This document shows positions 13,449 through 42,045 of a stretch of DNA of 64,000 nucleotides, piece after piece; position 1 is the first letter of the stretch, and each line of letters opens with the position of its first letter. Below the pieces are notes generated by a model. It was given only the letters and a program-made list of their open reading frames with translations, was not told the origin of the DNA and searched no databases. A program made the translations under genes and the position numbers. This stretch comes from Vermamoeba vermiformis (taxonomy: Eukaryota): positions 372,001-436,000 of the forward strand of contig JBEWZL010000232.1 in the NCBI GenBank assembly GCA_045837725.1. Reading direction: 5' to 3'.

Positions 13449-13791
13449 CTTACGGAGCGGACTATTCAAAAAGGTAACGAGAGATTTACCAGCGCAAATG
13501 ATACGTGTCAATTTTTTTTTCGTGATAAATTGCAAATTTAGCTTTATAGGCTCTTCAATCGGCCCAATCAATAGTTCAATCAATATGTTGTGATGTAAAG
13601 CTTGCTATTTATAAATTTCTTCGTATAAGCATCATAAGCGAATTGCAATATTTTTTGTGATCCGCGACTCATACTTCAAAAATCAAAAATTACAATCATT
13701 ACCCGCTGTTTTGAAGCATTACTTTTTGTTTTTTCGAAACCGAAACTGAATAGCACAAGGGCAGTGTATTATACCTTGTGACTATAATACC

Positions 13792-16329
13792 ATGGCCGAA
13801 GAAAGCACGGCAAAACGACGGCTCATAACAATTGCAGCCTTGTTGGGCCTCATTACGGTTCAAACATTGGTCGCTATCATTTACAAATTGGCACAAAAGA
13901 ATGGCAAATACGAGTTCTCAACAGCTTCAGCACTCACCATGGCAGAGTTCATCAAGATCTGGCTCAGTTTTGGTTTGCACGTCAAAGCGACTGGATGGAA
14001 AGACGCAAAATCAGAATTATTATCAAATTTGAAGAAAGCACCGTATATTCAATTAATAGGATTGGCTCTATCGTACTTCATCAACAACCATCTCAATTTC
14101 TACTTGTTTTTATGGGCCGATCCGGTATCCATAACTGTCATGAAATCAGGTGCTTCTTTTATTACGGCGATTCTATCATGGATAGTTCTATCAAAATTAA
14201 TAACAAAAGTTCAATGGAGCGCCATCTTGCTGCAAGTGGCAGGCTTGTGTTTGTTGCAATACGATCCGTGTCGCCATTCAACAACTCTCAAACTCAGTGG
14301 CTACTTCGTCATGTTCATCAGCGTTACCATAGCATCGGCTAATGGCATTTGGAATGAACGTCTGCTCAAGTCTTACGATTGTTCTCTCAACATCCAGAAC
14401 ATGATCTTGTACTCAGCCGGAACAGTCTTCAATTTCACATTATTCCTTGCTAACAGTAGTGAAATGGGCTTTTTCCAAGGTAAGCATAACCTCCATTCCG
14501 ACGCTTAATTAAAAGGCCGATTTTTCCGAATTTGAAATTATCTTCCGTTCGAAAAGGAAACAATTTGAAAAATTGAATAGAAGCAAAATTAACCGGGCCT
14601 ATTGAATTTAATATCCGAAAAAGATTAAAAAGTTAGATTATTCGCCAGATCCAATTAACGAAATCTCTTATTAAATTAGGCTACGACTTTCCAGCAGTCG
14701 TCATCGTGTTTCTCAACGCAGTTATTGGCTTGACGATCACTGTTATTTACAAATATACCAATGCCATTGCAAAAACGTTCTGTTCGGCAGTTGCAACAGT
14801 GGTGTTGTTCATCGTGAATGCAACGCTGTTCAACTTGCCTGCATCGCTCAATTCAGTGCTCAGCTGCATTGTCGTGTTCGTGGCAACGTATTTGTACACA
14901 CAAGGTGCAATGGCTGCTCCAAGCGCTCCAAGTACTTCAACCGCATCCACGAATGGAAAAGACTACGATAAATTACCTACGAGCGAATTGGATATTGAAG
15001 AAGAACCTGTTCAACGATCTAGATGGTCTAAAGCCTTTGGACAGATTACTGCTAGGCGAATTGGCGGATTAATATTTACCGCGGTTGTGATCGCCTCGTT
15101 GGTGATCTCGTTCAACTCCGTTTCCACCGGATCTCCTCCAGTAGTTCAAGAACCTCAAACAAATGATACAATAGTAGTACCTACGAGTACTGTTGAAGTA
15201 CCTACAAGCCCTATTGCAGTACCTGTTCAAGTTGGAGAACCTCCAAGACCTTCAGCCACATCCATGCTTCGCCAAATGGATCTGTCTGGAATAGTATTGC
15301 CACCTCAAGCATCATACTTCGACGATATACTAGTAGTATTGCACTTCAACAATCCTCGCTACAACCATTTGCCGATCCTGCTCGAGCAATACGGCAAGGT
15401 ATTCAAAAACCTGCTTGTATGTGGCCAACAACCGCATCCTATGGTCGATTATGTCTGCAAGACCAGTGAGTATTAATATTATATCTCTATATAGTATTTT
15501 AATCCTCATCGGTAAATTTCAGATCAAGTGAACAATGGCGGGCATACAATGTACGGATGCATTGCCGATTTAATGGAAGCTTATCCTTCGAACTACACTG
15601 GTTATTTATCATTCCACTTCGATTTGTTCGTCAATTACTGGAATTTATACGGCTTGGACAAAAATAAGACTTGGATCACGAAGACAAAAGACAACGAAGG
15701 ACCTCATTCCTTGGCCAAGTACCCGAAGAATAGCCCATGTGAGTACTATACTACTAACTATGACATATATGCTAACTCTCATTTAGCTGGTTGGGGTTGG
15801 TGGGGATCGAAGTGGGGAGTTCAAGCAGTGCGACGGGCGATGCCTAACATACCAACGGAATACAGAATGAAGATGAATGAAAGCACTGGAGCAAACGATA
15901 TATTTTGGAGAGGTATAATTCATCGCCGTAATCCGAATTCGCTTCGTTTATTAATTTTGTTGGATCACATCTAGGCATGGGAGATTTATTTTACGTCCCG
16001 CAACGCATGAGGACGGAGTTTATATCCCTCACCCGCATTTTTGTTCGGGCCGAGGTATTTTTGGAGATTGCTATCCCGACTATACCCATTATAATGGAAT
16101 TACCGGAAACTCCCGTCCATTTGTCAGGTATGACTCAATTAACGTCTATTTAAGTCAATGCTAATAATGTATAATAGGTACATTTGATTGGAGTGGTAAG
16201 AGTTTCGAACAGTTCTGGCATAAAGAGCACCATTTTGGCCATCCGTTTCAGTTCCACCAAAAAGGCATGTACGAACGGTTCCGACAGAGTATGAGTCTAG
16301 GCTATGAATTTAATGTTACTGCGACCTAA
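13792..16329 (+). CDS. Nucleotide-sugar transporter (SLC35A-like) fused to a STELLO/DUF288-C-terminal-like putative glycosyltransferase, copy A
   Basis: Transporter motifs TMAEFIK, YFINNHLNF, FITAIL..QWSAILLQ, GIWNERLLK, LNIQNMILY, YKYTNAIAKTF. Then an extra TM and a Pro/Thr stem, then FDDILVVLHFN..YGKVFKNLLVCG, GYLSFHFD..NYWN, GMGDLFYVP, VFLEIAIPT, HPF. The transporter-to-GT junction lies inside one ORF (14706-15476). Confidence 0.85.
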
Positions 16330-16672
16330 TAGCGCGAGTAAAATAATAAAATTGTGTACATTTTCGAAGCAACACGAGACCGAACTGCTCGCTAGATCTC
16401 TATTATAATCTCCCGATAAATTTGTATTGAATCATATATTCTTGCATCGATATAAGATATTGAGCTACAGTGCGAAGGATGACGGTCAATTTAGGACTTC
16501 AGACAAGATCGGAATGACATCCCCGAAAAAAAGAATTGATAGATCTATTATTGAATGGAAGCTCCAAAGATGATACCTTGTGAGCGTTGGTACACCCTAT
16601 GTATTGGAGAATAGGAATAGGATCCAGGTTAAAAGGCCGTTGATTTACTTTTCTTGGTACATCCGGGATCTA

Positions 16673-18211
16673 CTACAGCTTCAAAATGTCAGGCAATCGT
16701 TCTTCGTCTCGGGGCAAGTTGACTGCAACAACGGTCGGATAAGGCATAGTACTCGTATTATAGTCATTAATAGTATAGCGCACGGCGTGGAACAAGCCAT
16801 AAATAATTTGATGGTACGGGACGTTGAGCGCCTTCATTTGTTTTTCAGTTGCCTCCTTGAAACTCTCGTCGCGGGAGGTCATCAAAATTACTCTTGAACG
16901 ACCCGTATTATAGGCACGTCTAATAACCTCGACTGAAGGAAAAGAGAATTGTTAATTTTTGGATGCGCATGAAAAATAAATTATTAAATTAATCAGGGAC
17001 GCTTACTATTTTTCTCCAGAGGTCCAGTAGTTCCCCAGAAAGGTGGAAAATGTTGCGCTGATGATTTAACCAGAGTACCATCGATATCAACGAGTAAATT
17101 GTTGAAGGTCTGTTTGTAACGAGTCCATGCTTCAATTGTGCCCCAATCTGCGTATTCAGTAACGTGGTGAGCCCTGAAACGTTTATCTTCTAACATTAGG
17201 CCATAAATTACATGAGAAATCTGAAGAATAAATTATTAATAATTATTGAAAAAATTAGAAAATAATTATTTCTTCGCTTCTTACATAAATTTCTCCTGTG
17301 TGAGGCAATGAAACTAATTCTTGGTATTTTTGAGAGAACATTTCGGCAGAACTGAACGAATAGCCACCAACGCAAAATCGATCGGAGATGACCTTCTTTT
17401 CGACAATGTTCTCAATGAGATCGTCATGGTGAATAACAATGAAGCTCTTGCCGCCAACGTCGTAGTCAGTATTATCAATCTTCTTCGTACACACAAAGTT
17501 GCCCGGTTCGATCCTAGAATAACGGTAAAAAAACTTGCTTCACTGAAACTACAAATTTGATATACCAAATGCAAATATCCGTATACTGCATGTAATTAAC
17601 TGCATATTACTATACGGATACAGCTGCAGTATTAAAACAAAATCATAACGAAACTTTCAGATCATAAAAATTCCAATCTTTGCATGCATTGAAAATGATT
17701 AAAAACTAGGACGAACTATTATACGTTCGCTTTATAATAATATGTTAGCGATATATTAAACCGAAATCATCTCGTGTTTCAATATTTCAGTAAGGAAAGC
17801 AAATTTTCTATGATTGCGAAAATCAATCTTTTCTATTCCTTACCTGTATTGATAACAATTATCGCAATCTTTGACAAATATCGGTCCAGTAATATTCGCT
17901 TTGACTATTCCTTGGTGCACTGTCATCGATTGATCGGCGGTGGGTGCATCCAGCAAAACTGGCTCGACTTTGTTCAAGTAGCTCTCGTCCTTGAACATAT
18001 TCAATACGAGGTCTATTCTTCCTTCCAAATACTTATCGACATGTTCTTTGAGCAAAATAACGACGATTCGTTTGACGTTTGCAAGATCTAACTTTGCAAG
18101 TGCATCCACAATCATGGCTTTGCCGTTGGGCTGAGTGAGAAGCCATTTTGGCTTTCCTCCTCCAAATCGCGTTGAGCGGCCAGCGGCAGGCAGTACTAGT
18201 GTGGTAGACAT
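16673..18211 (-). CDS. Sugar-phosphate nucleotidyltransferase fused to a HAD-family phosphatase (bacterial capsule-locus type)
   Basis: Exon 1 has LPAAGRSTRF..KPKWLL and VKDCD; exon 2 has IVEKKVISDRFCVGGYSF; exon 3 has DWGTIEAW followed in the same exon by HAD motif I VDIDGTLV; exon 4 has MTSR and INDY. Exons 1 and 2 join in frame (YR|IEPGNFVC). Confidence 0.88.
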
Positions 18212-18386
18212 GTCTTGGTTGAATTGCGAATTAATTTTTTTGGTTCAACCCGACGAAGTTTCACACCGCGGTATAATAATTAAAACACATAAACGTAACA
18301 TCCGGGCAATTCGCCTGATATATAATCACGTAACTAGCGGTTTTTTAATTAAATAAGAAACGATTTATTAAATATATACAAACAAA

Positions 18387-19289
18387 TTACATTTTAACGG
18401 ACTGGACTTCGCGTTCCAGCGCCTCGAACAAAAATGAGATTACGTGCTCTTCTTTCGCGTATTGAACTACGCGCAGTAAGTTCAGAATTTGGAATGAGGT
18501 GTAGTATGCTTGGTACCACTCATACTTGGCGAAATGATTCACGCACAATTTGTCCAAGTACTTCAATGCAATCGCCATCTTGGTGCGATCCAATTCGTCC
18601 ATATTCTTCAACATGGTGCTCGTCCAAGCATGCGCTGTGTCTTGTCGCCATTTAACTACGTCTTGCAAGGGCGACTCTAAGAACGTATTCAAAAAGTCGA
18701 TAACGTAGATCTCTTTCGTGTAGAACTGGCCCAATGAGTTGATTAAGACGTTAGACATGGTTAAATCACCGTGGCAGCGTCCTACAGGTAACAAAACGGT
18801 GCATTTCTCGGGAGTAATCGTGGTCTCCAAGTACTTGACACATTTTTCCAAAGTGTTGAAGTACTTCGGGTTGTCAGCGAGTATCTTCTGAACGTGCGTA
18901 TTATTCTTCATTATATTAAGCACTTCTTTTGTCTTCGATAAGAACACTTGCACATCCAGCGGTTGCAACTCGGATTCGGCGATTTCATTTTGAATCAGCT
19001 CTACAATAGCATCGCTGAGTGAAGTAAGACCATCCTTCGTGCATGAACTCGCATAGCTAAAGCATTCGTTGTAAGGCAAATACTCCATCTCGACCGTGGT
19101 TCGATCGGATCCGTCTGACTTGCACGAGTGAATTCTGGCGGTCTTAATTTTAGGGCTGCCTTTGAACGACATTTGTTTCTCGATCTGAACTAAGAGGCGT
19201 GAGCTGCCTTGCTTGACGACGATAAAGTCGGCACCGCGTTTCATGAGGTGAACGCCGCCTTCCGGAGAATGACCTTGCAACTTGAGCAT
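18387..19289 (-). CDS. APH/choline-kinase-like phosphotransferase (capsule-locus type), intronless
   Basis: 300-aa uninterrupted ORF with Brenner-type CHGDLTMSNVL, VIDFL and ESPLQDVVKWRQD. Confidence 0.88.
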   Translation of the reverse strand: MLKLQGHSPEGGVHLMKRGADFIVVKQGSSRLLVQIEKQMSFKGSPKIKTARIHSCKSDGSDRTTVEMEYLPYNECFSYASSCTKDGLTSLSDAIVELIQNEIAESELQPLDVQVFLSKTKEVLNIMKNNTHVQKILADNPKYFNTLEKCVKYLETTITPEKCTVLLPVGRCHGDLTMSNVLINSLGQFYTKEIYVIDFLNTFLESPLQDVVKWRQDTAHAWTSTMLKNMDELDRTKMAIALKYLDKLCVNHFAKYEWYQAYYTSFQILNLLRVVQYAKEEHVISFLFEALEREVQSVKM

Positions 19290-19866
19290 TGGTGTCTATT
19301 AATGAATTACGACAATAAGAGTGGTGTCTTGTTGCGCGAAGTAACGCAATGAAATAACGAAAGTAACATTTCAAAACAACCTGCCAGTGTGACGTCTAAT
19401 CAATTCCCCAACGTAACCATAAATTTGATAAAATTCAGGCACGTGCATTAGAGCGCGGATTCTCCGTCTCATCTCTTTTCGGTTCAGTGAATATTTATGT
19501 CTTTGAATCACTCAATGGCAAAACTCGATCATTTTGATGCATTACTCCTTTGAATTTGTAGTGAATAGTCCGTACCTGTTTATCGAAAATACGGAAAGTA
19601 GTAATACAGCTACGTTGTTTATATTTGAATTACAGCAAGTAGAATCGTTTCGACTTATTTTCAACCCGGAAATGCCTTCCGCTTTGACTTCCGTTACAAA
19701 TCCGGAAGACTGATGCCGTCAGAACGACCCTTATCAGTCTCAATACAGTAGCACTATTGAACACTATATTATACCGAGCATGCTCAATCTTGGGTAATTA
19801 ATTGAATGCCGCAAAGTTTGCTATTGGATTTCACATTAAGGGTAGTTTATTAACAACGTGGAAAGT

Positions 19867-21855
19867 CTATGAATCGATATGCTCCACAGTACGACGAGAC
19901 CTGAGCCATTGCCTGACACCCATTGCTGTGCCAAACACAACTACGGAAAGGACAATAGCGAGCGGGTAGATCCACAACCCCAACTGCGTTGTCTTCTCTT
20001 CAACGACACTCTCGGCTTGAGGTTCTTCGTTGGCTGGTGAGTTAGGTTCTTCAGGCACGCAATAGCACTTCCGCTGGTAACACTCGAAGTTACATGTCGC
20101 GTTGACAGGTTTGGCAAAGTTGGCGCAATCACTGTGTGCTGAACAAGTTGTTCCGAGTGCCAAGTAGTAGTAACCTGAGCGCGGCACAACGGTGAAAGTG
20201 TGGCCTGACACAGCGGCGAACAATGAGCACTGTTTGTCCGATTGCTTTTCCTAAGTGAACAATTTGTCTTATTAGCCTCAAGTATCTCTTTGAAAACTTG
20301 CTAAAATCGCGTAGTAGTTTCCTATAGCAATGCGTACCTTGTAACAAATGGACAGTTGCATGACTGTAGAGTTAATGACAGTCGCCAGATCCTTGACGGT
20401 GATGTTGACATTGCCAGGACCGCTACTTCCTGGCACGTACATCACCTTCCAGTGTCTGTTCAGCACGTACATCAGTCCAAAGTCCGCATTGGCTTGCCAC
20501 TTCAGTTGATCTGACGAGTTGTGAGCGACACACAGCGACGAAGGGACGTCAGCAGTTGAGTCCAGAGCATTGATGTCAGTAATTTTAAAATGCGGTGAGC
20601 TAGAGGCCTCTCGTACTTCTTGACCAGCGTAGCGCGTAAGACTGGCAAAATCTTTGTTGTACGTGTCTGTCAAACCGGAAGCGATCCGTTAGATCACATT
20701 TTAATTTTTAAACTCTGTTTGTATGCAGAGTATATGATTAAGGGACGTAAAATACGTACTATCATAATTCCAAAATTGCCAAGTACCAGCGGTGAGTTGA
20801 TATTCGCGCAGGTATTGCATGTTGAGTGCGAACTTGTCAGTGTCGCTGAGCGAATCAGAATAGACCTCTAAATTATGAATTACGCCGTAGAATGGCGAGG
20901 TTGTAAATGGAGAACCTCCGAGTACCAACCAGCCTAATAAGATTTAGTTAGGCAATTTGATTTGAAACTTGATCCAATTATGGAACGAAATCTTATTCGA
21001 TTTATACTCAATTAGTATATGATTAGCTTACCATCTATGCCTTTAAATTCATCTACGAGCTGATTTTCAACCCTCATTCCGCCAATTTGCAACGAGATCA
21101 GGTTTTTGTTGAGCGAAGCGTAGATGAGCGTCGCGCTGTAGTCTCCGACATTTACAGCATTAACGTAGTCGTTGGAACATACTTGAACTCCTCTATTTTT
21201 CCAGTAAAATCCAAAACACTTCGTGTCGTACTCGTATTGAAGAGTTAAAGCGTCATTGGTCGTGGTAAAAACTAATATTCGTTAGTTCGATGCCTTCGTC
21301 GTTAATATATAGTCCATATTAATGCTTCTTACATGTAAACGGTACTGTAGTATTTCTTTCGTTCCTGGTGAACAAGGAGATCAACGCTACGATCTGGATC
21401 TTCGACGACGGGAAGATAAAAGGACCAGTTAGCGATCTAATAACTATCATTAGCATTATATTATACCTTATAATGGTCGATATGATAGCCAGGAGCTATT
21501 AAACGTAATATTTTTTGAAAATTAATGAAGCAATTTCAAGACATTACCAGAAGCTAATATGACAATAATTTAACGGCGCTTACTTGCTCTGCAACACATT
21601 TTTCGGGATAAACGCAACTGCGTTCTTATTCGCCCTAACTGAAACCAGATTCGGTTGTTGAAACGGATCCGCTTGTTTGTAAATTACTCCACGGTTGTCA
21701 GCCCATGAAAATATAGCTTTAGTCAGTGAATTTGTTACATTGAACTTTGCTGCTGCTGTTGGGAACTGCACTTCAGGGGCAGGGAATGAAAACGAGTGGT
21801 CCAAGAAATATACTAAAACTAATACAACAACTATAGGCAATAAGAAGGGTTTCAT
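19867..21855 (-). CDS. Type I membrane protein with a LamG/ConA-like ectodomain and a Cys-rich segment
   Basis: Signal peptide MKPFLLPIVVVLVLV; LamG-like ending LVLGGSP..FYGVIHNLEVYSDSLS; Cys cluster C..HSDC..C..C..CYC; TM LWIYPLAIVLSVVVFGTAMGV followed by basic residues. Confidence 0.6.
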
Positions 21856-22004
21856 TTTGTCTGCCGTGCACTACAGCTGACTAAAATACTAGAAAATCAG
21901 ACGGCAACACAAACGGAGAATTGGGTATGGTACGTAGATCTAGATCTCGGTTGCGATTTATAAAATTTGCAAATTTCTAGCTTCGGAAGCAATCAATGTT
22001 TTTA

Positions 22005-24438
22005 TTACGTCTTATATCCAGTACGCATAATCTTCCTAAATTTAGCGTACATGCCGTCTTCGTTAAACCTGAACGGATGTGCAAATTGGTACTCTGACTT
22101 CCAAAATTCTTCAAACGCCTTGCCGCGCCAATCAAAGTAACCTTAATATAGTTACGATTAATAATCATAATCATTACCCGTTGCCATATCAATGCAGAAT
22201 CTAATCAGCAATATATCACTGGATCTTTCAATTCTTTACCGGTCAAATTTGTCGGACTTGCAGGAGCTTCCAAGATATAAGGAATCGTTGGTATAGCTAG
22301 CTCTAAGAACACCTTATTCTTGACGAATAAGCGCGTTAGGGCGATGTACTCGGTTCTCAATCTTTGCGGGATGTAAAATAGATCTCCCATGCCTAGATTG
22401 AAAAACTATGTCAGATCTCGCTACTTTTCGAAAGAAATCGAATCAACGTACCACGCCATATTAAGTCATTAGCACCATAAGTATCTTGCAATCGATCTTT
22501 GTATTGCTTTGGCAGCTCTTTCATCGATTGCCGACAGGCTTTCAGACCCCATTGAGTATGCCACCACCACCATCCAGCTATTAATTGTAAAGTATAATAC
22601 GGTGAGTTACGAATATACATTTTGAAGTATTATTGTTCGGCTTACTTGGTCCGGTGGTGTCATTTTGAAACGTTGACATCGAATACGGTCCGAGACTGTC
22701 TTCTTCAGTGTACGTTATCCAAGTCTTGTTCTTATCGAAGTTGTTGAACGACCAGTAGTTCAGTAGCAGATCGAAGTGGAAGGATAAATAGCCCGCGTAA
22801 TTCGGATAGGCTTCCATAATATCGGCGATACATCCGTACATTGTATGACCGCCATGACGGACTTGGTCTGAAAGTGCAATCAATAAGTAAGCTAGAATGA
22901 GCAATGATATGAGAATCATTCTTACCTTTAGTGCAAACATAATCGATTGCTGGATGTGGATCCGGACCGCACACAATAAAGTTTTTGAAAACTTTACCGT
23001 ATTGCTCGAGCAAGAGCGGCAAATGATTATATCGTGGACTATTGAAGTGTAGGACTACCAATATGTCATCGAAGTACTTGTGCGAGGGCGGCAAAGTCAC
23101 AGACAATCTCTCGATCCGGAGCTCTCCATCCGAAACAGTGTGCGGTGTAATTTCATCAACCTGTGGTACGTTCTCGGGTTCAATCGTCTCTTCTACTCCG
23201 TTGATAATTGATTGACTTGATATAATTAGCGAAGCTATAATCACTAATGCGAAAATTAATCCGCCAATTCTTCTCGCTGTGATCTGCCCGAAAATCCTCT
23301 TCCAAATCGATTTCTTTGGTTCTATATCATCTTCTATATCCATCTCGCTCATCGGTAATTTATCGTAGTCTTTTCCATTCGTGGATGCGGTTGAAGTACT
23401 TGGAGCACTTGGAGCAGCCATTGCACCTTGAGTGTACAAATACGTTGCCACGAACACGACAATGCAGCTGAGCACTGAATTGAGCGATGCAGGCAAGTTG
23501 AACAGCGTTGCATTCACGATGAACAACACCACTGTTGCAACTGCTGAACAGAATGTTTTTGCAATGGCATTGGTGTATTTGTAAATGACAGTGATCGTCA
23601 AACCAATAACTGCATTGAGAAACACGATGACGACTGCTGGAAAGTCGTAGCCTATTTTAATAAGAGATTTCGTTAGTTAAATCGGATCTTCGCGTGTCAA
23701 AATTAGTTTTTTCCGTAAATCATGAAACAATTCGTTAATACGATAAGTACCTTGGAAAAAGCCCATTTGACTGCTATTAGCAAGGAATAATATGAAATTA
23801 AAGACCGTTCCAGCTGAGTACAAGATCATGTTCTGGATGTTGAGAGAACAATCGTAAGACTTGAGCAGACGTTCATTCCAAATGCCATTCGCTGATGCTA
23901 TGGTAACGCTGATGAACATGACGAAATAGCCACTGAGTTTGAGAGTTGTTGAATGACGGCACGGATCGTATTGCAACAAACACAAGCCTGCCACTTGCAG
24001 CAAGATGGCGCTCCATTGAACTTTTGTTATTAATTTTGATAGCACTATCCATGATAGAATCGCCGTTATAAACGATGAGCCGGATTTCATAACGGTAATT
24101 GACACCGGATCGGCCCATAAAAATAGATAAAAATTGAGATGGTTGTTGATGAAGTATGATAGAGCCAATCCTATTAATTGAATGTACGGTGCTTTCTTCA
24201 AATTTGATAATAATTCTGATTTTGCGTCTTTCCATCCAGTCGCTTTGACGTGCAAACCAAAACTGAGCCAGATCTTGATGAACTCTGCCATGGTGAGTGC
24301 TGAAGCTGTTGAGAACTCGTATTTGCCATTCTTTTGTGCCAATTTGTAAATGATAGCCACCAATGTTTGAACCGCGATCAGCCCGATCAACGCGGCAATA
24401 GTTATGAGCCGTCTTCTAGTAGGGCTTTCTTCGGCCAT
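22005..24438 (-). CDS. Nucleotide-sugar transporter fused to a STELLO/DUF288-C-terminal-like putative glycosyltransferase, copy B
   Basis: Paralog of 13792-16329 with a matching exon layout. The transporter part is nearly identical; the GT part is diverged (GYLSFHFDLLLNYWS, GMGDLFYIP, VFLELAIPT, AHPFRF); stop at 22005-22007. Confidence 0.85.
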
Positions 24439-24498
24439 TTTATATATACATGTATTATACTCGGTGAGGCGAATTACAAAATGAGCCTGAGTAACGAA

Positions 24499-24862: not shown

Positions 24863-27039
24863 ATGTGGTCATTGCAATCAATGCAACGTATAGTACTAGT
24901 ATGTTGCCTTGTATTCGTTACTGTTGCTGTTAGTGAGCTGCAAGATCCAGCTCGACCAAAGTTTCATTTTCTGCCGGAAGAAAATTGGTAAGTAATTGAT
25001 TTCAACATATCTCAATAAGGGTTATAGTATATTTATGAATATAGTCTAGCAAATAGACGACAAAAATATTGCACTTTGCCATCCTAATTATCTTACCCTA
25101 TAAAAAGGCTGAACGATCCCAATGGAATGTTTTATTTTAATGGTTATTACCATGTATTTTATCAATATGCGACGACTGTTCAATGGACCAATTTGAAATA
25201 TTGGGGCCACGCTGTTTCCAAAGATTTAGTCACTTGGCAACGCTTACCTATCGGACTTTATCCCGATCAACGTACGTTCTCTCAATTGCCAAATTCATGC
25301 TAACATATATGGCATAGCTGGCGCTGATATTTATGGAGTTTGGAGGTAAGCAAAGGAAAGTTCCGCTCTCAAAAAATTAATTTGAAATTCTTTTTTCTAT
25401 TTAGTGGCAGCGCTATCGTAGTCAATGATAGTATGATTATGGCTATATATACTGGTATCAATCAACCCACTGTAACTGACGACGGAGCGCAAGTAAGTTA
25501 ATTTTTTTTGTTCCGCGAAGATTTATTGCTGAGAGACTAATTCCCCGTTAGACGGTCTGCCTAGCCTATCCTAATAGTACTGATGGCATTCTAGTCAATT
25601 GGTACAAAGACACCGCCAATCCCGTGATATCTGGCCCTCCAGATTTCTTGCAAGGTTTACTCGTGGCATATCGCGACCCGTGCATTTGGAACCAAAACGG
25701 AACCGTAAGAACAAATCCAACGATTGCAGCACTACGTAGACTAACTATAGCCTAGTACTACTTCATTTTGGGTAGCGGAGTTCGTCATTTGCATTCGATT
25801 GCGTTGTTGTACAAGAGCACGGATCTGCACTCGTGGAGTTACGAAGGCGTATTTGCAGCAGGCAATGACGACGAAGGCTGGGAGTGGGAGTGTCCTGATT
25901 ACTTCAGCCTGCCCACCCCCGACGGCAAGACAGTAGATTGCTTGTTCTTGTCGATTCCTGGCACTGGCATTGGTTGGAAAGTTGGGCACACTGACCTCGC
26001 GACGATGAGATTCCATTCTCGGTCTGGCTCTGCTTTCCGTTATGACGTTGGTTGGAACTACGCACCTAGAAGCTTTTATGATCCGATAAAGGTCCGTAAC
26101 GAGTTCCTATTGATATTCCTAACATTTTTCATTAAGAAACGTCAAGTTCAGTTCGGGTGGTTAAATGAAGGCAGATCTACCGACAGTAAGACATTGTATT
26201 GATACTTACTATTTGATATTTAGTCTAACATGATCATACTGTTAGTTAACGAAAAAGAAGGATGGGCTGGTGTGATGACACTTGGCCGCGAGATCTACGT
26301 GTAATGCAACTTTTTTGACGCGTTAAAAGTATCCCTTGGCTGACGTTTTTATCGATGCACCAGACGTGAAGATTATACTCTCGGATTCCGTCCCCTCGAA
26401 GAACAACAGCAGCTCAGAACAGGGGTCATTTTCACGATGTCAAATTACACGTTCCCGACAAATTACCTCAACTGGCACAACGTGTTCAGAGAATTCAAAG
26501 GCAACCAATACGAGTTCATTGCTAAGTTCAAAATCTCCAAGGCTTCGCAGACCTCGTAAGAAAATCCGAATCTTTTCTGAGAATTATTATGTAGTTGACC
26601 TGACCGATTATTTTTAGCGATCGATTTGGTTTGATTTTGTACGCAGATCCAGGCTTCACTGAATACACGAGAATATTTTTCGACATGTCCGCCAATACCG
26701 TGGGCTATGATCTCACACGCGCATCGACCAATTCACAGACTGATCACAGCATTAACCAGTTGAATTACAAAATCCCCTCGGATACTTTAACGTAAGCTCT
26801 TTATTATTTCATCGAACAATTACAAGACTAACAGTGGATCCGATAGGTTGCAAGGGTTTGTCGACCACTCAGTGATCGAAATATTCGTCAACGAACAAGT
26901 CGTAATAACACCGCGAGTGTACCCTAACAATCCAGATTCGAAGCACATTGGCCTGTACTACGAACAAACAGCTGAAACACAACCCTCGAAGATTGTCCTC
27001 GAGTCTTTGGTGATATACGGCGTTGATTCTATTTGGTAG
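24863..27039 (+). CDS. Secreted glycoside hydrolase family 32 (beta-fructofuranosidase/invertase/inulinase-like)
   Basis: Signal peptide; RPKFHFLPEENW|LNDPNG, WGHAVSKDLVTW, WSGSA, YRDP, WECPD; C-terminal beta-sandwich FVDHSVIEIFVN..TPRVYP. Confidence 0.95.
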
Positions 27040-27100
27040 AAATAAAAACTAAAAGTGATTTTAATCGTTTTTTTTCTCCAAACGAAAAGTGGAAATTGCA

Positions 27101-36544: not shown

Positions 36545-37506
36545 TCAAATCGTTCGTTGAGAATGGTCCGCTTGGTTAGATTCTTTAGCCAATTTTTGCA
36601 AGTGCCAAACAACGGATACAGGAATAAACATCTTGTTCCGCTCTGAAAAGAACTTAGGTTCTTCGAAATCCTATTAATTAACATCAGTGCTACTGCGTCA
36701 TTACATTACTGCACAAGACAGACGTACCAGCACTTGGAATCCGTTAGATTTGAAACACTTCCAGTAGGCTGATAGAGGTCGATGGTGCTCGATGAAATGA
36801 TGATCTGGAAATCGATCGGCGCCCCAGTAAGTATCGAAGGCAAAGTCTTCAAAGTAGCTTTGCTGAGTTCTGAAGTAGGTCTGGTAAGTTCTCGTGCCAT
36901 CAGCTTCGATCGGTGTCGCGAAACAAGGATGCAAAATGACTATGATTGCACGACCTCCTGGCTTCAACACTCTATTGAACGCCTACATGGAAGGATTAGT
37001 CAGATTCTCGTGGCTCGTGCAATGCTCAAACCTGGATTGCATCTTGGTAGAACGGTGTGTCCATCAGAACATAATTGTTAACGATCAAATCGATTGATTC
37101 ATCATCAACGGTACGTAGCTCAGTAATAGAATCGATTCTAGCTTCAATCTTCGAGGCGACTGGGCCTACAAAGATCAAACTGAGTTCGAATCCATTGCTA
37201 CGGTTTCTTTGATTGCTTACTCTCTGATACTCGTTTCTTAGTAACTTCTAGCATTTTAGAAGACAGATCCACGGAATGCACGTGCTTAGCACCTTGACTG
37301 GCGATTTTAATGCTCAAATACCCAGTTCCGCATCCAGCGTCGAGCACAACTTTATCAGTAACATCTCCGAGGTACGAAAATAATACTGGATCGCTAGAAG
37401 TGGTTCTATTATAATCGCCCTCAGTTCCAATTTGCGAATCCCAGGCTTGCGCCTTCTGATCCCAATTATTCGCGATGACTTTCAACTCTTGTTTGTGCTC
37501 CATCAT
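36545..37506 (-). CDS. Class I SAM-dependent methyltransferase, bacterial-like
   Basis: VLDAGCGTGYLS motif I, VDLSSKML, LKPGGRAIIVILHPCF, HHRPLSAYW. Confidence 0.88.
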
Positions 37507-37750
37507 GTACGTCGTAAATTAAAATGAATTTTTCAACCGCAATTATCACGACACCAGAATAGGCTGCAATAAGTTGGTTACTTTTCGGAGATCTCTGCTG
37601 GACAACAATTCTCAAACTTTTGCTAAGTATCGTTGATAGCTATTGTCGCATCTATGATTCTATTCAATAGATTGGTCGATGGAAGATTCTGCTCGTGCAT
37701 AAATTAACGTGAGGCGACTTTTCGTCAAACAGATTTTTTTCTGCTTCATA

Positions 37751-39224
37751 ATGACACGCAACTTGATTTTGATAGGACTCGTGATTTCTTTGCTTGCAAT
37801 AATTAGCATGGCTGGCACCCCTAAAACTGTGCATAAGCGAGGCGACGGTTGGGAGGTAAAACGAAAATATCTCGATCTGCAACAAAAATATTCAAAAGAG
37901 GCGCATATTTTTAGAAAATTGCGAAAATAATATGACTGCATCACTATATTTTCGTCATATTAATAACAATTTTTGACGCAGTGGTTTTGCATTGGAGCAT
38001 GTGACACGGCAGATCTTCTGTCACACAAGCCCAAGCCACGAAGCAACACTGGCGGCATAGCACTTATTGGGGGCGGTACTGATGATGACCCTGCATTCAA
38101 GGTATTATAGTGTTCTTAATGAATTTTACGTTACGGTCACATCCGTTGAACGTGACAGGACCATTGACTGACACATTTCAATTTATAGTGGTTATTGGAA
38201 CAAGGACAGTACGGCCACTTCGTCGTTATTAGAACTCACGGATCTGACGCCTATAATGAGGTATTATTACTAGAATAAGTGAGGTAAAGCTGACGCAAAT
38301 TTCAGTACGTGTACGAGTTCGGAGCACGTGCCGCCTCAACCTTAATAATTTCAAGCCGCACTGGATCCAACAGCGATTTTGTCAACGACATCATCCTCTC
38401 AGCAGATAGCTTGTTCATTGCTGGAGGAGATCAATACGAGTACTGGACCAACTGGACAAACACACGTGTTCAACAGTCATTGCAGACTCTCGTGAACAAC
38501 GGTACTTCAATTGGTGGAACATCAGCAGGCATGGCTGTAATGGGAGAGGCAAGTACAATACTATGGATCACGTTTCAGCGTTCTAATGCCCAGCTGTAGT
38601 TCGTGTACACTTGTGCAAATGGCACCTCCGCAGAGTCGCCGATTGTTTTGAAGAATCCATTTGACGACACGATGAGCTTTGGCAGAAACTTTTTGAACCA
38701 GCCAATCATGAAGAATATCATCACAGATACTCACTTCCGTCAATACGACCGCCTTGGACGTTCGATGGCTTTCTTGGCTCGGATCTGGAATGACTACCCT
38801 GATGGTACGTTTCACATACTTTCAGTAGTATTTTATCTAATTGTAATGCAGTTGACGTTGTCAAGGGAATTGCATGCGACGAACAAACAGCCGTAATTGT
38901 CCATGGAGGTTCTGGACATGTGATGACACGTGTCAACAACCCTCAATCAAAGTGGAATGACTGTACGTAGCGCATGAAATAGTTAGAGCTTGCGACTAAT
39001 GGATAACTATAGTGCATGTTGCGTACTTCTTCTTGTCAAAGAGACCACCAGCAGTGTGTCAGCCAGACACGCCGTTGACATTCGGAAAGATCTCAGTGTG
39101 GCGACTTCACAACAATCAAACATTCGATCTCATCAACTGGACGAGCAATCAAGGCGAGTACTATGAACTCGATGTCGAGAACGGTGATTTGTCATCAATC
39201 GGAAACAGCGGCCAAACTTATTAA
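37751..39224 (+). CDS. Secreted cyanophycinase-like peptidase (family S51)
   Basis: Signal peptide; GGIALIGGGTD, LFIAGGDQ, catalytic IGGTSAGMAVMG, TDTHFRQYDRLGR, GIACDEQTA. Confidence 0.88.
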
Positions 39225-39465
39225 ATATCGGTTGTCGTACGTCTTTTAATTTTTACCTAATTAACTATTATATCTACGATCGTTGCCACCATTTAATTTG
39301 AGAGAATCGATTTTCTGAAGTAAATTTCGAGGTGCTCACAAATCGTCCCTTCTAAAGTTAGAATCAGAATTTCAATGTGACAGGTCCCTTATTAATTTAC
39401 TTGCAATGCGATTCATTATACTACCGCTTATTGAGCCGACAACAACAGGTCAAGTTTGAAAAAAA

Positions 39466-42045
39466 ATGTCGGCAATTTCAACGAGACTTGTTCTTCAACT
39501 TGCCATAATAACCGCCCTTGTATTGGGCATTCGATGCGGTAAGTAAGGCATTATGCCAGCTAGTACAATAATAATATGCGTAGTTTTTTAATTCTACGAT
39601 ATTGACGTTATTATTTATTTCAGCGATTTCAGCACCCGATCCGATTGATTGGATTTCGTCTGTGCCTGCATTATATCGACGCGTTGTTCCTAGCCATCAA
39701 AGTACCGTCGAGCAGAACCCTCCTTCGTTCTGGTGGTCCGGCTATCCGAGCATTAGTCCGAGTATCAACTTCACCGTATCTTTGTGGGCCAATGCCACTT
39801 CAACCGATGTAAACCCTCAGTGGACCTTCACGACATCGGTGAACTACTTGAATATACCTTTTACTCTCCCGGTTGGAACGCAGTATCTCTGGCAAGTGAC
39901 ACGTATCACCGTGTCATCAGGCACGTCAGTCCCAAGTGCTGCCCGGTCCTTCTATCTCTCACCCACGGCACTGCCTTTTGTTGTGCCATCAACTGTCATT
40001 GAAGACGTGAAGAAGTCGGCACATCCAAGGCTTCTCTTGAAAGGTGCTGCTCGTGCTGCTTGGCTCGCGTCAGATCTTGGAACAAGTTTCAAGTCTCGGT
40101 TACCTACAGTTAATATCGATAGTTACTTTGGCGTTGCGTTGCCTCCGACACCTACTGCATTGTACACCGATTATCCCAACAGTGACGCACTAGCCGCGGC
40201 TGCTTCCAACGACTACCATCAGTTTGTCCAGACAATCAACTTCTCCATTCGCAATTTGATCGTAGCCTATTGGTACAACCCTACGAATACAACAGTTCTG
40301 GCTGAGCTTAAAAGAAGAACTATTGCTTTTGCCAATGCCAACCCGAACGGAACGACGAGTCATAAAGTGCAAGACCAAGCCAACAGACTCGTCTTATTGA
40401 CACTAGCGCAATCTTACGATCTCATTGGGAACTCCTTCAACACGTCAGAGAAGTCACTCATTGTCTCGGTCATTGTCAATAGAGCCAATCAGATGTACAA
40501 CGCTTACTACCAGTTCACGTCGCTGTTGATTTCGCCTCACGATTCGCACGGCCAAAACAATCTCGGGTACATCGCGCAAGTGGCAATTGCAATGCTTGGC
40601 GAAGTGCCTGAAGCGGACCAATGGGCTACATCGATTCCCATGAACTTCAATTTGTACAGCTCTTGGAGTGCCGAAGACGGTGGCTTTGGAAATGGTTTTG
40701 GATACGCTTATTGGGATGCATATGGTGGTCCTCGATGGGACTTCTTCGAATGGGCCACTGGCGTCAAAATGAACAACAAGCAGTTCATTGTTGAATGGCC
40801 CAAGCAGTTCGTCTATTTTGGACCGTACGCTGCAATCCGTGGAGGCCTTGGCTTTGGCGATGATGGCGAGAAAGACATGATTGGTGCCATGCCCGTTGTT
40901 TGCAACAATTTGATCAGCAGAGTCGTGTACAACCATCCAGATATTTACGAAGCGGAATTGTACAACTATTATTGCTCGCAGTTCCCGAGATACAGCCAGA
41001 TTTTAAGTTTCAGATACGATGATACGATATGGTCAGCTGACTTTAAGAACGTTACAACGTTGACTAAGGACTATCCAAAGTCGATTCATTTGAAGACTGC
41101 AGGCTGGGCAGCATTCCATAGCTCATTGACGGAGTACAATAGAACTGCGCTATTTTTCAAGTCAAGCAAGTACGGCAGTTACAATCACAACAGTGCCGAT
41201 CAATTGAGCTTCACAATGGTTCACAAAGGTCAACAAATGTTCATTGCGAGCGGTCACTATATGACTCGTACATGTCACCGCAACACAAGAACTGGCGCAA
41301 GCAAACAATAGCCATGACAGGCGGTGTCACAATGGACGGTGGCATCGGTCAAGCATTCGACACTATGGAAGCCTCTGGAAATATCACGCAATACGCCACA
41401 ACCAATGACTATGACTACGTGACCGGAGATGCATTGCTTGCGTATAACGCAGGACTGGCAACGGATTCAGAGCTCCTTTTGACACGTGCCATTCGTTCAT
41501 TGGTCTATCTCAGAGGTGCAAATCAGTTCTTGATCTTTGACCAATTTGACGCTGTTTCGCCACGTCAGTTCGAGTGGAACTTCCACGCTTATGTCAATTT
41601 CACTGAAATCTCGCAATCGCCGCTGATCATTCAAAGCACCAAGGGTGGCGTGTCAACGTGTCTCAACTTGCTTTACTCGTCAACGCCAGTCACTTTTTGG
41701 CAAACAGATCAGTTCCCTAGCAACGCGAATACTACTTTGCCGAATCAAGCGCACGGTCAATTCAAGTTCAGTTCAAAGGCTACGAGTGCTTCGTTTGTTA
41801 TTCTTATTGATCCTGATTGCACAGGATCTGTCCCGCAAATTAATCAATCGAGCAATAATGAATGGTCGTTCGATATTAATGATACACACGTCATATTCAA
41901 CGGCAATGAGTTGATTGTCAAGTCTCCTGACAGTAACAATAACAATCCAAATGGGCAGCCCAGTGCAATTTCAAGCTCGAGAGATCTACATGTCAGCGTT
42001 GCAATCGCAGTTCTTTCGTTTATAATGTTGGTTCTTCAAATGTAA
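39466..42045 (+). CDS. DUF4962 + heparinase II/III-like polysaccharide (oligo-alginate-type) lyase with signal peptide and GPI-like tail; frameshift at ~41260
   Basis: VEQNPPSFWW, HPRLL, PHDSHG, DGGFGNGFGYAYW, GFGDDG, GWAAFHS, FKSSKYGSYNHNSADQLSF, then frame-shifted YDSYMSPQH, DYVTGDA, FEWNFHA; one intron only; hydrophobic C-terminus. Confidence 0.85.

Follow-up and report, generated by a model that had tools for sequence, protein, structure and literature searches.

How do two adjacent genes of bacterial appearance come to lie among ordinary eukaryotic genes, and what do they encode? The question is raised by a 64,000-nucleotide (nt) stretch of DNA from Vermamoeba vermiformis (assembly GCA_045837725.1, contig JBEWZL010000232.1, positions 372,001 to 436,000), which was analysed as a whole and is called the window below. 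In this window a small-molecule kinase gene is followed by a gene encoding a nucleotidyltransferase (NT) fused to a HAD-type phosphatase, here called NT-HAD. An earlier note on this DNA had proposed that the two genes were acquired laterally as a unit and then gained introns. We consider it likely that the pair is a fragment of a bacterial or phage operon that entered the eukaryotic lineage in one piece and was domesticated there, and that the donor cassette belongs to polysaccharide loci and carries out sugar-activating chemistry.

Both genes lie on the minus strand and form a single copy within the window; their coordinates are collected in Table 1. Two co-oriented genes 175 bp apart, a kinase without introns and an NT-HAD gene with three canonical introns had been described in the earlier note, and our reading of the sequence together with the listing of open reading frames (ORFs) agrees on every one of these points: the kinase is one ORF and the NT-HAD frame is joined across three GT..AG introns. 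At 18364-18369, 18 nt past the kinase stop, the minus strand of the spacer reads AATAAA. As the hexamer occurs in the window at chance level (112 seen vs about 110 expected), this is a weak hint at most. The neighbouring genes, which short introns interrupt, encode Rap_GAP, RhoGEF, CLU, eIF3_p135, RRM, RCC1 and Kelch domains. Scans for Rfam families and tRNA genes gave no hits. The GC content of the two coding sequences (CDS) is 0.45 and 0.43, compared with 0.44-0.46 in the neighbours, and the introns are AT-rich. The composition is thus host-like.

The splicing of the NT-HAD gene was followed in four sequencing runs mapped over positions 15700-22600. Run X4 carries another organism label, has contigs that are 95-99% alike to the window and was taken as RNA by guess; its contigs cannot reveal transcript ends. 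Run X1 consists of DNA contigs and may be the window's own source sample, hence it is not independent. The other two, raw RNA runs with the species label of X1, gave 0 reads and have no bearing on splicing. The X4 contigs omit exactly the three predicted NT-HAD introns. They also omit the introns of neighbouring genes, whose transcripts are found in the same run at equal likeness, and they have zero depth in the bins 16393-16623, 17548-17778 and 19396-19857, which cover intergenic sequence and intron 1. The X1 contigs retain the second and third introns together with part of the first, and over 17666-19357 they link NT-HAD exon 1, the kinase and the sequence upstream of it without a break. Among the X4 contigs listed, to which 41 further pieces can be added, the kinase contig (18426-19341) is unspliced and has a depth of 160, and the NT-HAD contig (16636-18207) has a depth of 59. 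The separate contigs and their different depths point to two mRNAs, and the genes therefore appear to be expressed as separate messages.

The differences between the window and X4 are mostly silent. Among the differences listed (45 further ones are distributed along the whole stretch), the kinase has 13 synonymous and 2 non-synonymous changes and the NT-HAD CDS has 11 synonymous and 0 non-synonymous ones. With 24 synonymous against 2 non-synonymous changes in total, purifying selection on both genes is well supported.

Sequence near-identical to parts of a 6-kb stretch turns up in runs X4-X20, among which at least six other organism labels and metagenomes of water and roots are represented. 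It seems, then, that the source organism often accompanies or contaminates other samples.

Conserved gene order in bacteria and phages

A word-based search with the kinase returned three close relatives (99%, 68% and 66% identity), and the next ones, of bacterial type, were at 36% or below. When 1.84 billion representatives were searched with HMMER, 981 relatives reached E<=1e-3 and 51 of them <=1e-30; the kinase's own 50% cluster (P0003, 67%) was the only one above 40% identity. The relatives make up about a thousand 50%-identity clusters, and the names retrieved for clusters were uninformative ("hypothetical protein", "choline kinase", "thiamine kinase-like enzyme"). When exon 1 of NT-HAD was used as query, full-length NT-HAD proteins of about 355 amino acids (aa) and some longer ones were retrieved. 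Scans with an NT-HAD alignment located the fusion at 83 loci, 46 in prokaryote genomes and 37 on viral contigs. These scans were bound by motif patterns and the counts are therefore minima. Among the phyla that carry NT-HAD are Campylobacterota, Bacteroidota, Pseudomonadota, Planctomycetota, Bacillota, Elusimicrobiota and Cyanobacteriota, and one archaeon is represented by a metagenome-assembled genome (MAG).

In most of these loci the kinase is the neighbour of NT-HAD. A tblastn search with the window kinase detected a homologue at 69 of the 83 loci, directly upstream on the same strand at 61, 1-3 kb upstream on the same strand at 7 and divergent at 1. The window has this same kinase-upstream, same-strand order, so the eukaryote keeps the standard order and orientation of the donors. 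For the 58 loci with both proteins, the distance matrices of kinase and NT-HAD are correlated (Mantel Spearman 0.67, with 0 of 999 permutations as high), and so are the distance profiles of the two window proteins (rho 0.62). Correlated distances across so many loci argue that the cassette travels as a unit. There are also proteins in which the kinase is fused to the NT (P0053 and P0055, 541 aa, as well as a gene at locus L086). Together, the kinase-NT and NT-HAD fusions link all three activities within a single pathway.

The donor context is one of sugar modification. A cluster of the short-chain dehydrogenase/reductase (SDR) or GDP-mannose-dehydratase (GMD) type is present at 42 of the 83 loci, and other neighbours are GT2, WavE, O-antigen ligase/Wzy_C, ABC exporters, methyl- and carbamoyltransferases, DegT aminotransferases, radical SAM proteins, cupins and SIS isomerases. 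WavE genes flank the pair at nine loci and SIS (GmhA-like) genes are near it at seven. In Marinobacter (L043) the pair is found in a lipopolysaccharide (LPS) core cluster beside an SIS gene, a fusion of PfkB with a cytidylyltransferase (CTP_transf), a GT9 heptosyltransferase and a separate HAD gene, and is followed by a WavE and a Wzy_C gene. No constant third partner of the cassette was found across the 83 loci; the neighbours are diverse and many are without a family. The earlier note had placed this trio of domains in bacterial capsule loci, with BcbE/EcbE-like and BcbF/EcbF-like proteins, and in some phages. Polysaccharide loci are indeed where it occurs, including LPS core, O-antigen and capsule-like loci, a range wider than capsule loci. 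Its occurrence in phages holds, given the 37 viral contigs and the T4-type major capsid gene (Gp23) in four of five records of the first viral set tested. A search of a phage collection gave one full-length match, an unannotated marine virus, among five records matched, and a plasmid collection gave no match to the cassette.

Two side observations were made on these loci. The viral contigs L047-L057 and L064 share a same-strand block of carbamoyltransferase, kinase, NT-HAD, an unknown 265-aa protein, methyltransferase, GT2 and two more unknowns, and two records of this block (L064 and L048) hold a T4-type Gp23 capsid gene. The NT-HAD of L006, on a contig titled Rhodopirellula, is near-identical to that of L043 from Marinobacter vinifirmus (branch lengths 0 and 0.002), and the same WavE, Wzy and c54 genes lie downstream of NT-HAD at both loci, which suggests a mis-binned contig.

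Predicted enzymes and their chemistry

In Pfam the kinase matches EcKL (2.3e-6, 27.6 bits, cut-off 22), and the weaker matches to APH and Choline_kinase fall below their cut-offs, the latter being marginal (18 bits vs a cut-off of 29). The catalytic loop reads C-H173-G-D175-L-T-x-S-N180 and is followed by the metal-binding D198 (IDFLD); H173, D175, N180 and D198 are invariant across 27 aligned relatives. The structural model has a predicted local distance difference test (pLDDT) score of 92.4. It shows the bilobal fold of the APH/choline-kinase/protein-kinase-like class, and the HxDxxxxN motif and downstream metal-binding Asp of that class are present. In Foldseek the best match is APH(4)-Ia (template modelling (TM) score 0.63), and maltokinase, methylthioribose (MTR) kinase, NahK (N-acetylhexosamine 1-kinase) and choline kinase follow, all of these sugar, aminoglycoside and choline kinases with a probability of 1.00. 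Several of these matches phosphorylate an anomeric hydroxyl. No solved structure closer to the kinase by sequence than the catalytic-loop matches was found. According to the model, the first gene encodes a small-molecule kinase of the APH/choline-kinase fold, with a sugar-type substrate as the prediction.

The first exon of NT-HAD matches NTP_transf_3 in Pfam (5.4e-8, 33.6 bits, cut-off 27), and the motifs PAAGRSTRF, KPKW and KDCDN that mark the NT fold are retained. The family-conserved HAD motifs are found as DIDGT (D244/D246/G247), T289, R322 and N326-D327, and 38 of 41 family-conserved positions, DxDG included, are kept in the window protein. The HAD models of Pfam and NCBIfam gave no significant match on the window exons or on homologues, and the HAD assignment rests on these motifs and on profiles of the homologues. 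The latter match the Pnkp1 phosphatase domain (1e-3), phrog_1238 (1.2e-7) and phrog_415 (1.3e-4), the PHROG matches tying the HAD part to a polynucleotide kinase family among others. In NCBIfam nothing came near the cut-offs for the kinase, NT-HAD or their bacterial relatives. The family phrog_1238 is named "phosphoheptose isomerase" yet matches the HAD phosphatase part, and the name may mislabel a GmhB-like phosphatase.

For the structure of NT-HAD we used a model of P0016, a bacterial-type relative with 43% identity, in place of the window's spliced protein. This model has a pLDDT of 77, with a good NT half and a poor HAD half (35-85). Its best match is 4evw, an NDP-sugar pyrophosphorylase of Vibrio cholerae (TMt 0.76; NDP, nucleoside diphosphate), which is also retrieved by the NT-HAD family profile (4.6e-6). 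Further matches of the NT fold are UDP-glucose pyrophosphorylases (UGPase), RmlA, inositol-1-phosphate cytidylyltransferase (IPCT) and, at rank 36, LicC. Judged from motifs and profiles, the second gene most likely encodes a sugar- or alcohol-phosphate nucleotidyltransferase joined to a predicted capless, GmhB/PNKP-like HAD phosphatase.

These activities can be arranged in one route. The kinase would phosphorylate the anomeric carbon of a sugar phosphate from central metabolism to give a sugar 1,n-bisphosphate, the HAD domain would take off the distal phosphate to leave the sugar-1-phosphate, and the NT domain would join this to a nucleoside monophosphate, yielding an NDP-sugar. A variant in which the phosphatase acts first, the anomeric kinase second and the NT last is equally open. 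We put the chances of the three-activity scheme, in which kinase, phosphatase and NT together make a nucleotide-activated sugar, at about even, and those of any one substrate much lower; the order of reactions, the class of sugar and the nucleotide are what we infer.

A known pathway with such a division of labour leads to GDP- or ADP-D-glycero-D-manno-heptose, in which the kinase is HddA or HldE, the HAD phosphatase GmhB and the nucleotidyltransferase HddC or HldE. As predicted for the cassette, it combines a kinase for the anomeric position of a sugar phosphate, a HAD-type phosphatase that clears the distal phosphate and a nucleotidyltransferase. The cassette kinase differs by its APH/protein-kinase-like fold, which places it outside the GHMP and PfkB kinases of the heptose route, and the cassette NT is MobA/IspD-like and fused to its phosphatase, whereas GmhB is separate. 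By analogy, the cassette may work like the heptose pathway without being a member of it. At the Marinobacter locus the canonical heptose route is complete beside the pair, so the product of the cassette there is probably not ADP-heptose.

The other systems that invite comparison are LicA/LicC, a choline kinase and a CTP:phosphocholine cytidylyltransferase, and the salvage pair AmgK/MurU, which works with the HAD phosphatase MupP. Both resemble the cassette in pairing an APH-fold kinase with a small NT, and LicC and choline kinase are among the fold matches. Unlike the cassette, LicA/LicC has no phosphatase, and the gene order and NT-HAD fusion are particular to the cassette family. In an alternative reading, what the cassette activates is a non-sugar alcohol such as choline, ethanolamine, glycerol or inositol, which would be used in a phospho-substituent after the manner of LicA/LicC. 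The weak Choline_kinase, EcKL and IspD-type matches are in its favour, as are the IPCT and LicC matches of the NT fold and the name "choline kinase" that one source gives to a relative. However, the best match of the NT fold is an NDP-sugar pyrophosphorylase, the kinase fold is nearest to APH(4)-Ia and then maltokinase, with choline kinase further down, an alcohol-kinase route offers no evident task for a phosphatase, and the donor neighbours are sugar-modifying enzymes. We consider this alternative unlikely and prefer the activation of a sugar.

Ancestry of the pair and a second eukaryote-like group

Trees were built for both proteins, and the supports given here are values of the Shimodaira-Hasegawa-like approximate likelihood ratio test (SH-aLRT) from quick searches, with a threshold of 95. 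The full NT-HAD tree (LG+G4) contained 83 rows, that is, the window, 71 of 78 locus proteins (those of at least 300 aa) and 11 database proteins. In this tree the window groups with P0012-P0015 (92), inside a set of 39 prokaryote and virus rows (98). A reduced tree of 59 of these rows, from which near-duplicates and most of a distant clade had been dropped, was computed with the C20 mixture model. The window again groups with P0012-P0015 (84), adjoining L063, a contig named after a giant-virus MAG, and P0017 (90), and a wider clade (96) takes in all of these plus P0021 and the viral contigs L059 and L061. This clade comprises the window, three viral contigs, two unknown rows and the other eukaryote-like group. 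For the kinase, 104 rows were used (the window, 35 database proteins and 68 of 70 locus proteins of at least 230 aa). Here the window forms a clade with P0002 and P0003 (100), with the metagenomic P0061 as sister (96), and this clade is nested among bacterial and unknown rows.

By plain identity, viral proteins account for 9 of the 10 nearest locus proteins of the kinase and for 4 of the 10 of NT-HAD, and the closest bacterial relative has 35% identity to the kinase and 44% to NT-HAD. As far as sequence comparison goes, the ancestry of both genes is clearly bacterial or phage. The donor may have been a bacterium or a phage, and the nearest viral relatives may be phages or giant viruses. The viral set nearest the window has Gp23 in none of its five records, which are fragmentary and give no evidence either way. 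A capsid gene of nucleocytoplasmic large DNA viruses (NCLDV) was found in none of nine viral records; for the fragments nearest the window this, too, says nothing either way.

The NT-HAD tree led to a second eukaryote-like group. A metagenome scan with P0013 found seven loci (L084-L090) with a GC content of 0.48-0.50. At L086 (1.38 Mb) and L088 (311 kb) the NT-HAD carries an N-terminal extension of 250 aa that contains introns and belongs to no known family, and the NT-HAD domain itself is uninterrupted. On both contigs a gene with introns, which joins a kinase of this family to a second NT domain, lies on the same strand 1.4 kb upstream of the extended NT-HAD; the two-gene cluster is at 6450-12099 of L086. 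The kinase of L086 is 24-29% identical to that of the window and is placed on a long branch, not grouped with it. At L084 and L085 the extended NT-HAD is a single ORF and no kinase was found in the available flanks. The neighbouring ORFs look eukaryotic, and our impression from their sequences is that they include a fungal-type sugar transporter. The second group (P0012-P0015 and these loci) is called fungus-like below.

The NT-HAD family has therefore either entered eukaryotes at least once more or reached both groups through one older entry. The window groups weakly with the second group (84-92), so the data do not establish that the transfer was a single recent one confined to this lineage. 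A specific alternative is that the window lineage and the fungus-like group share one older acquisition, or that the genes passed from one eukaryote to another. The grouping of the window NT-HAD with P0012-P0015 in both trees points in this direction, and so does the kinase-NT fusion upstream of NT-HAD at L086. Yet this support is under 95, the second group (44-46% identity) is no closer than bacteria and phages are (44%), and the L086 kinase is distant and placed separately, albeit on a long branch. The architectures are also unlike, with an N-terminal extension, a kinase-NT fusion and an NT-HAD domain without introns in the second group, and the flanks of L084 and L085 lack a kinase. A common older entry or an exchange between eukaryotes is in our judgement improbable.

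Much less probable still is that the genes are ancient, vertically inherited eukaryotic genes lost nearly everywhere, or that two independent transfers became neighbours. The existence of the second eukaryotic group is all that speaks for this, and against it stand the operon arrangement of 61 donor loci that is kept in the window, the lack, among the 1.84 billion representatives, of eukaryote-like kinase relatives at more than 40% identity other than those of its own lineage, and the nesting of both proteins within bacterial and phage diversity. Contamination or a chimeric assembly, with bacterial DNA joined to a eukaryotic contig, can be dismissed for practical purposes because of the spliced transcripts, and the host-like composition, the DNA contigs that are continuous from NT-HAD into the region upstream of the kinase, the neighbours' transcripts at equal likeness in the same run and the low identity of the closest bacterial relatives all agree with what the earlier note had argued from the introns and the eukaryotic neighbours.

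This leaves the uptake of a bacterial or phage operon fragment in one piece, against which several observations weigh. The kinase was not found at 14 of the 83 loci, five of which have less than 900 nt of upstream sequence. At eight loci (L075-L082) there is an NT but no HAD part, so the phosphatase step is not obligatory, and a strict bisphosphate route is weakened. The Marinobacter locus holds the full heptose set (SIS, PfkB-CTP_transf fusion and HAD) beside the pair. No Pfam, NCBIfam or PHROG family of tested function covers the kinase or NT-HAD, and no substrate was identified. The backbones of the trees are weak, with supports that come from quick searches. The nearest neighbours of the two proteins differ, with 2 of the top 10 shared, and a common donor is therefore deduced from synteny and co-evolution, not from congruent trees. 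Finally, the RNA status of X4 is a guess, and the two mRNAs rest on the contigs listed and their depth.

With these points in view, it is well supported that the pair was transferred as a unit, then gained introns and came under purifying selection. The lateral acquisition as a unit that the earlier note proposed is borne out by the kinase-then-NT-HAD order of the donor loci and by the position of both proteins among bacterial and viral sequences. Kinase and NT-HAD, both nested in bacterial and viral diversity, have no identical sister groups. The proposed intron gain after uptake also agrees with the data: three introns are spliced in the window gene, and the NT-HAD domain is interrupted in no relative examined, the second eukaryotic group included. 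That the window's introns are not shared with this group fits a gain after acquisition. After uptake the pair would thus have retained the order and orientation of the donor, come to be expressed as separate mRNAs, gained three spliceosomal introns in NT-HAD and been kept by purifying selection, and its composition matches the host.

The surrounding cluster and a possible link to fructose

The pair is embedded in an arrangement of eukaryotic genes (Table 1). An inverted duplication (13787-15691 / 22702-24443, repeats I1-I5) has placed two copies of a nucleotide-sugar transporter gene with a luminal C-terminal X domain of no known family, NST-X1 and NST-X2, on either side of the kinase/NT-HAD pair and of a gene for a type I membrane protein. 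The copies are 93-95% alike in the transporter and 73-83% at the start of the X domain, and both are present in the X4 contigs. The introns of NST-X1 lie at 15466-15522, 15739-15786, 15911-15972 and 16126-16175, and its first exon junction was located only to about 14480-14636. The X domain (15300-16329 (+) and 22011-22900 (-)) gave no Pfam match with its seven exon pieces even at E 10; no relative was found for one 71-aa exon piece (five candidates, none scored), and no similarity to the neighbour genes of the 83 loci was seen by tblastn or phmmer. A GT-A-like look of this domain (ILVVLHFNNP, later FHFDLF and DLFYVP) is an impression only. Adjoining the cluster is a multi-exon gene of GH32, the beta-fructofuranosidase family, at about 24900-27040 (+), with a Glyco_hydro_32N match of 5e-16 on one exon and the motifs LNDPNG, RDP and WECPD.

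Table 1. Positions of the kinase/NT-HAD pair and of other features in the window
Feature	Position	Strand	Description
Kinase CDS	18390..19289	(-)	300 aa, single uninterrupted ORF, no intron; stop 18387-18389
Spacer, kinase stop to NT-HAD start	18212..18386	(-)	175 bp
NT-HAD gene, whole	16673..18211	(-)	4 exons, 3 introns; joined frame of 356 aa, one terminal stop
NT-HAD exon 1	17844..18211	(-)	aa 1-122 + 2 nt; N-terminal half of nucleotidyltransferase, PAAGRSTRF...KPKWLLT
NT-HAD intron 1	17514..17843	(-)	330 nt, GT..AG, GC 0.29; X4 joint 17512/17843 (cut +1)
NT-HAD exon 2	17285..17513	(-)	remaining half of nucleotidyltransferase domain
NT-HAD intron 2	17221..17284	(-)	64 nt, GT..AG, GC 0.17; X4 joint 17220/17286, one letter between
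NT-HAD exon 3	17007..17220	(-)	linker YADWGT and HAD motif I LLVDIDGTLV
NT-HAD intron 3	16933..17006	(-)	74 nt, GT..AG, GC 0.30; X4 joint 16932/17007
NT-HAD exon 4 with stop	16673..16932	(-)	HAD motifs II-IV: ILMTSR, R322, ND at 326-327
NST-X1	13792..16329	(+)	Nuc_sug_transp transporter (Pfam) and C-terminal X domain of about 270 aa; one arm of inverted duplication
Type I membrane protein gene	19867..21855	(-)	six exons, about 501 aa; signal peptide, luminal domain, Cys-rich stretch, one transmembrane segment; weak Pfam hints
NST-X2	22011..24438	(-)	other arm of inverted duplication (Pfam and inverted repeats); lies beyond the type I membrane protein gene from the kinase
Class I methyltransferase	36704-37518	(-)	
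Peptidase_S51 gene	38294-38893		
DUF4962 + Heparinase II/III C-terminal gene	39584-41308		uninterrupted 575-aa frame

For an NDP-sugar made in the cytosol, a transporter into the Golgi and a transferase in its lumen are required, and the arrangement thus suggests that a cluster was assembled around the acquired genes. The adjacency of these genes is what points to a eukaryotic gene cluster of this kind, formed after the transfer.

Fructose is one sugar to which this could be related. The core LPS of V. cholerae contains fructose. In bacterial capsules, the fructose side chain of Pasteurella multocida type B requires BcbE and BcbG, with BcbF predicted to be needed likewise (PMC13552107), fructose addition in E. 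coli K4 is ascribed to KfoE, with KfoD having no known function (PMC3673904), and the capsule of C. jejuni HS1 has fructofuranose branches that are added by HS1.08 (PMC7901785). The 11-gene HS1 capsule locus, as listed there, has no kinase or NT-HAD of this kind, which counts against a general fructose link (PMC7901785). For BcbE and BcbF the source on Pasteurella multocida reports no domain content, and their kinship with the cassette, suggested in the earlier note, is a candidate one. The motif-bound cassette scans turned up no Pasteurellaceae or E. coli locus that could be set beside the BcbE/BcbF or KfoD/KfoE loci. A distant DNA search of E. coli genomes with the H. bilis locus gave no match either, this search being insensitive at such divergence and no proof of absence from K4 strains. 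In the literature searched, no pathway to an activated fructose donor was found. It is a doubtful but specific possibility that the cassette is a route to an unusual nucleotide-activated sugar, fructofuranose being the most attractive one, with NDP-fructose made from fructose 6-phosphate via the 2,6-bisphosphate and fructose 2-phosphate, within a eukaryotic Golgi glycosylation cluster. Leads towards it are the need for BcbE and BcbG in P. multocida, the WavE genes at nine of the 83 loci, the V. cholerae enzyme as best structural match of the NT domain, the fructose in V. cholerae core LPS and the GH32 gene. In this possibility, doubtful as a whole, the parts of the cluster would be the two inverted NST-X genes, with the X domain as candidate transferase, the lectin-like type I membrane protein and the adjoining GH32 gene.

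Further bacterial-looking genes are found in a stretch of higher GC content (0.44-0.46) at 36700-41310, which holds the last three genes of Table 1. The window may be rich in acquired genes.

The transfer of bacterial operons or pieces of operons into eukaryotes, followed by their domestication, is a known phenomenon. The pair described here is like these cases in that adjacent genes have kept the donor order and have gained eukaryotic introns and separate transcripts. It is unlike them in that the cassette is functionally uncharacterised even in bacteria. A report of this cassette in a eukaryote was not found in the literature searched.

In our reading, then, two functionally linked bacterial or phage genes entered a eukaryote together, kept their operon order and became ordinary eukaryotic genes. 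Such cases are few, and they show the acquisition of a whole metabolic step rather than of a single enzyme. The cassette itself is widespread, occurring in many phyla and in T4-like phages, without a curated family, a solved structure or a tested function. As its product is probably an unusual activated sugar, the eukaryote that expresses the pair may decorate surface or secreted glycans with a "bacterial" sugar.

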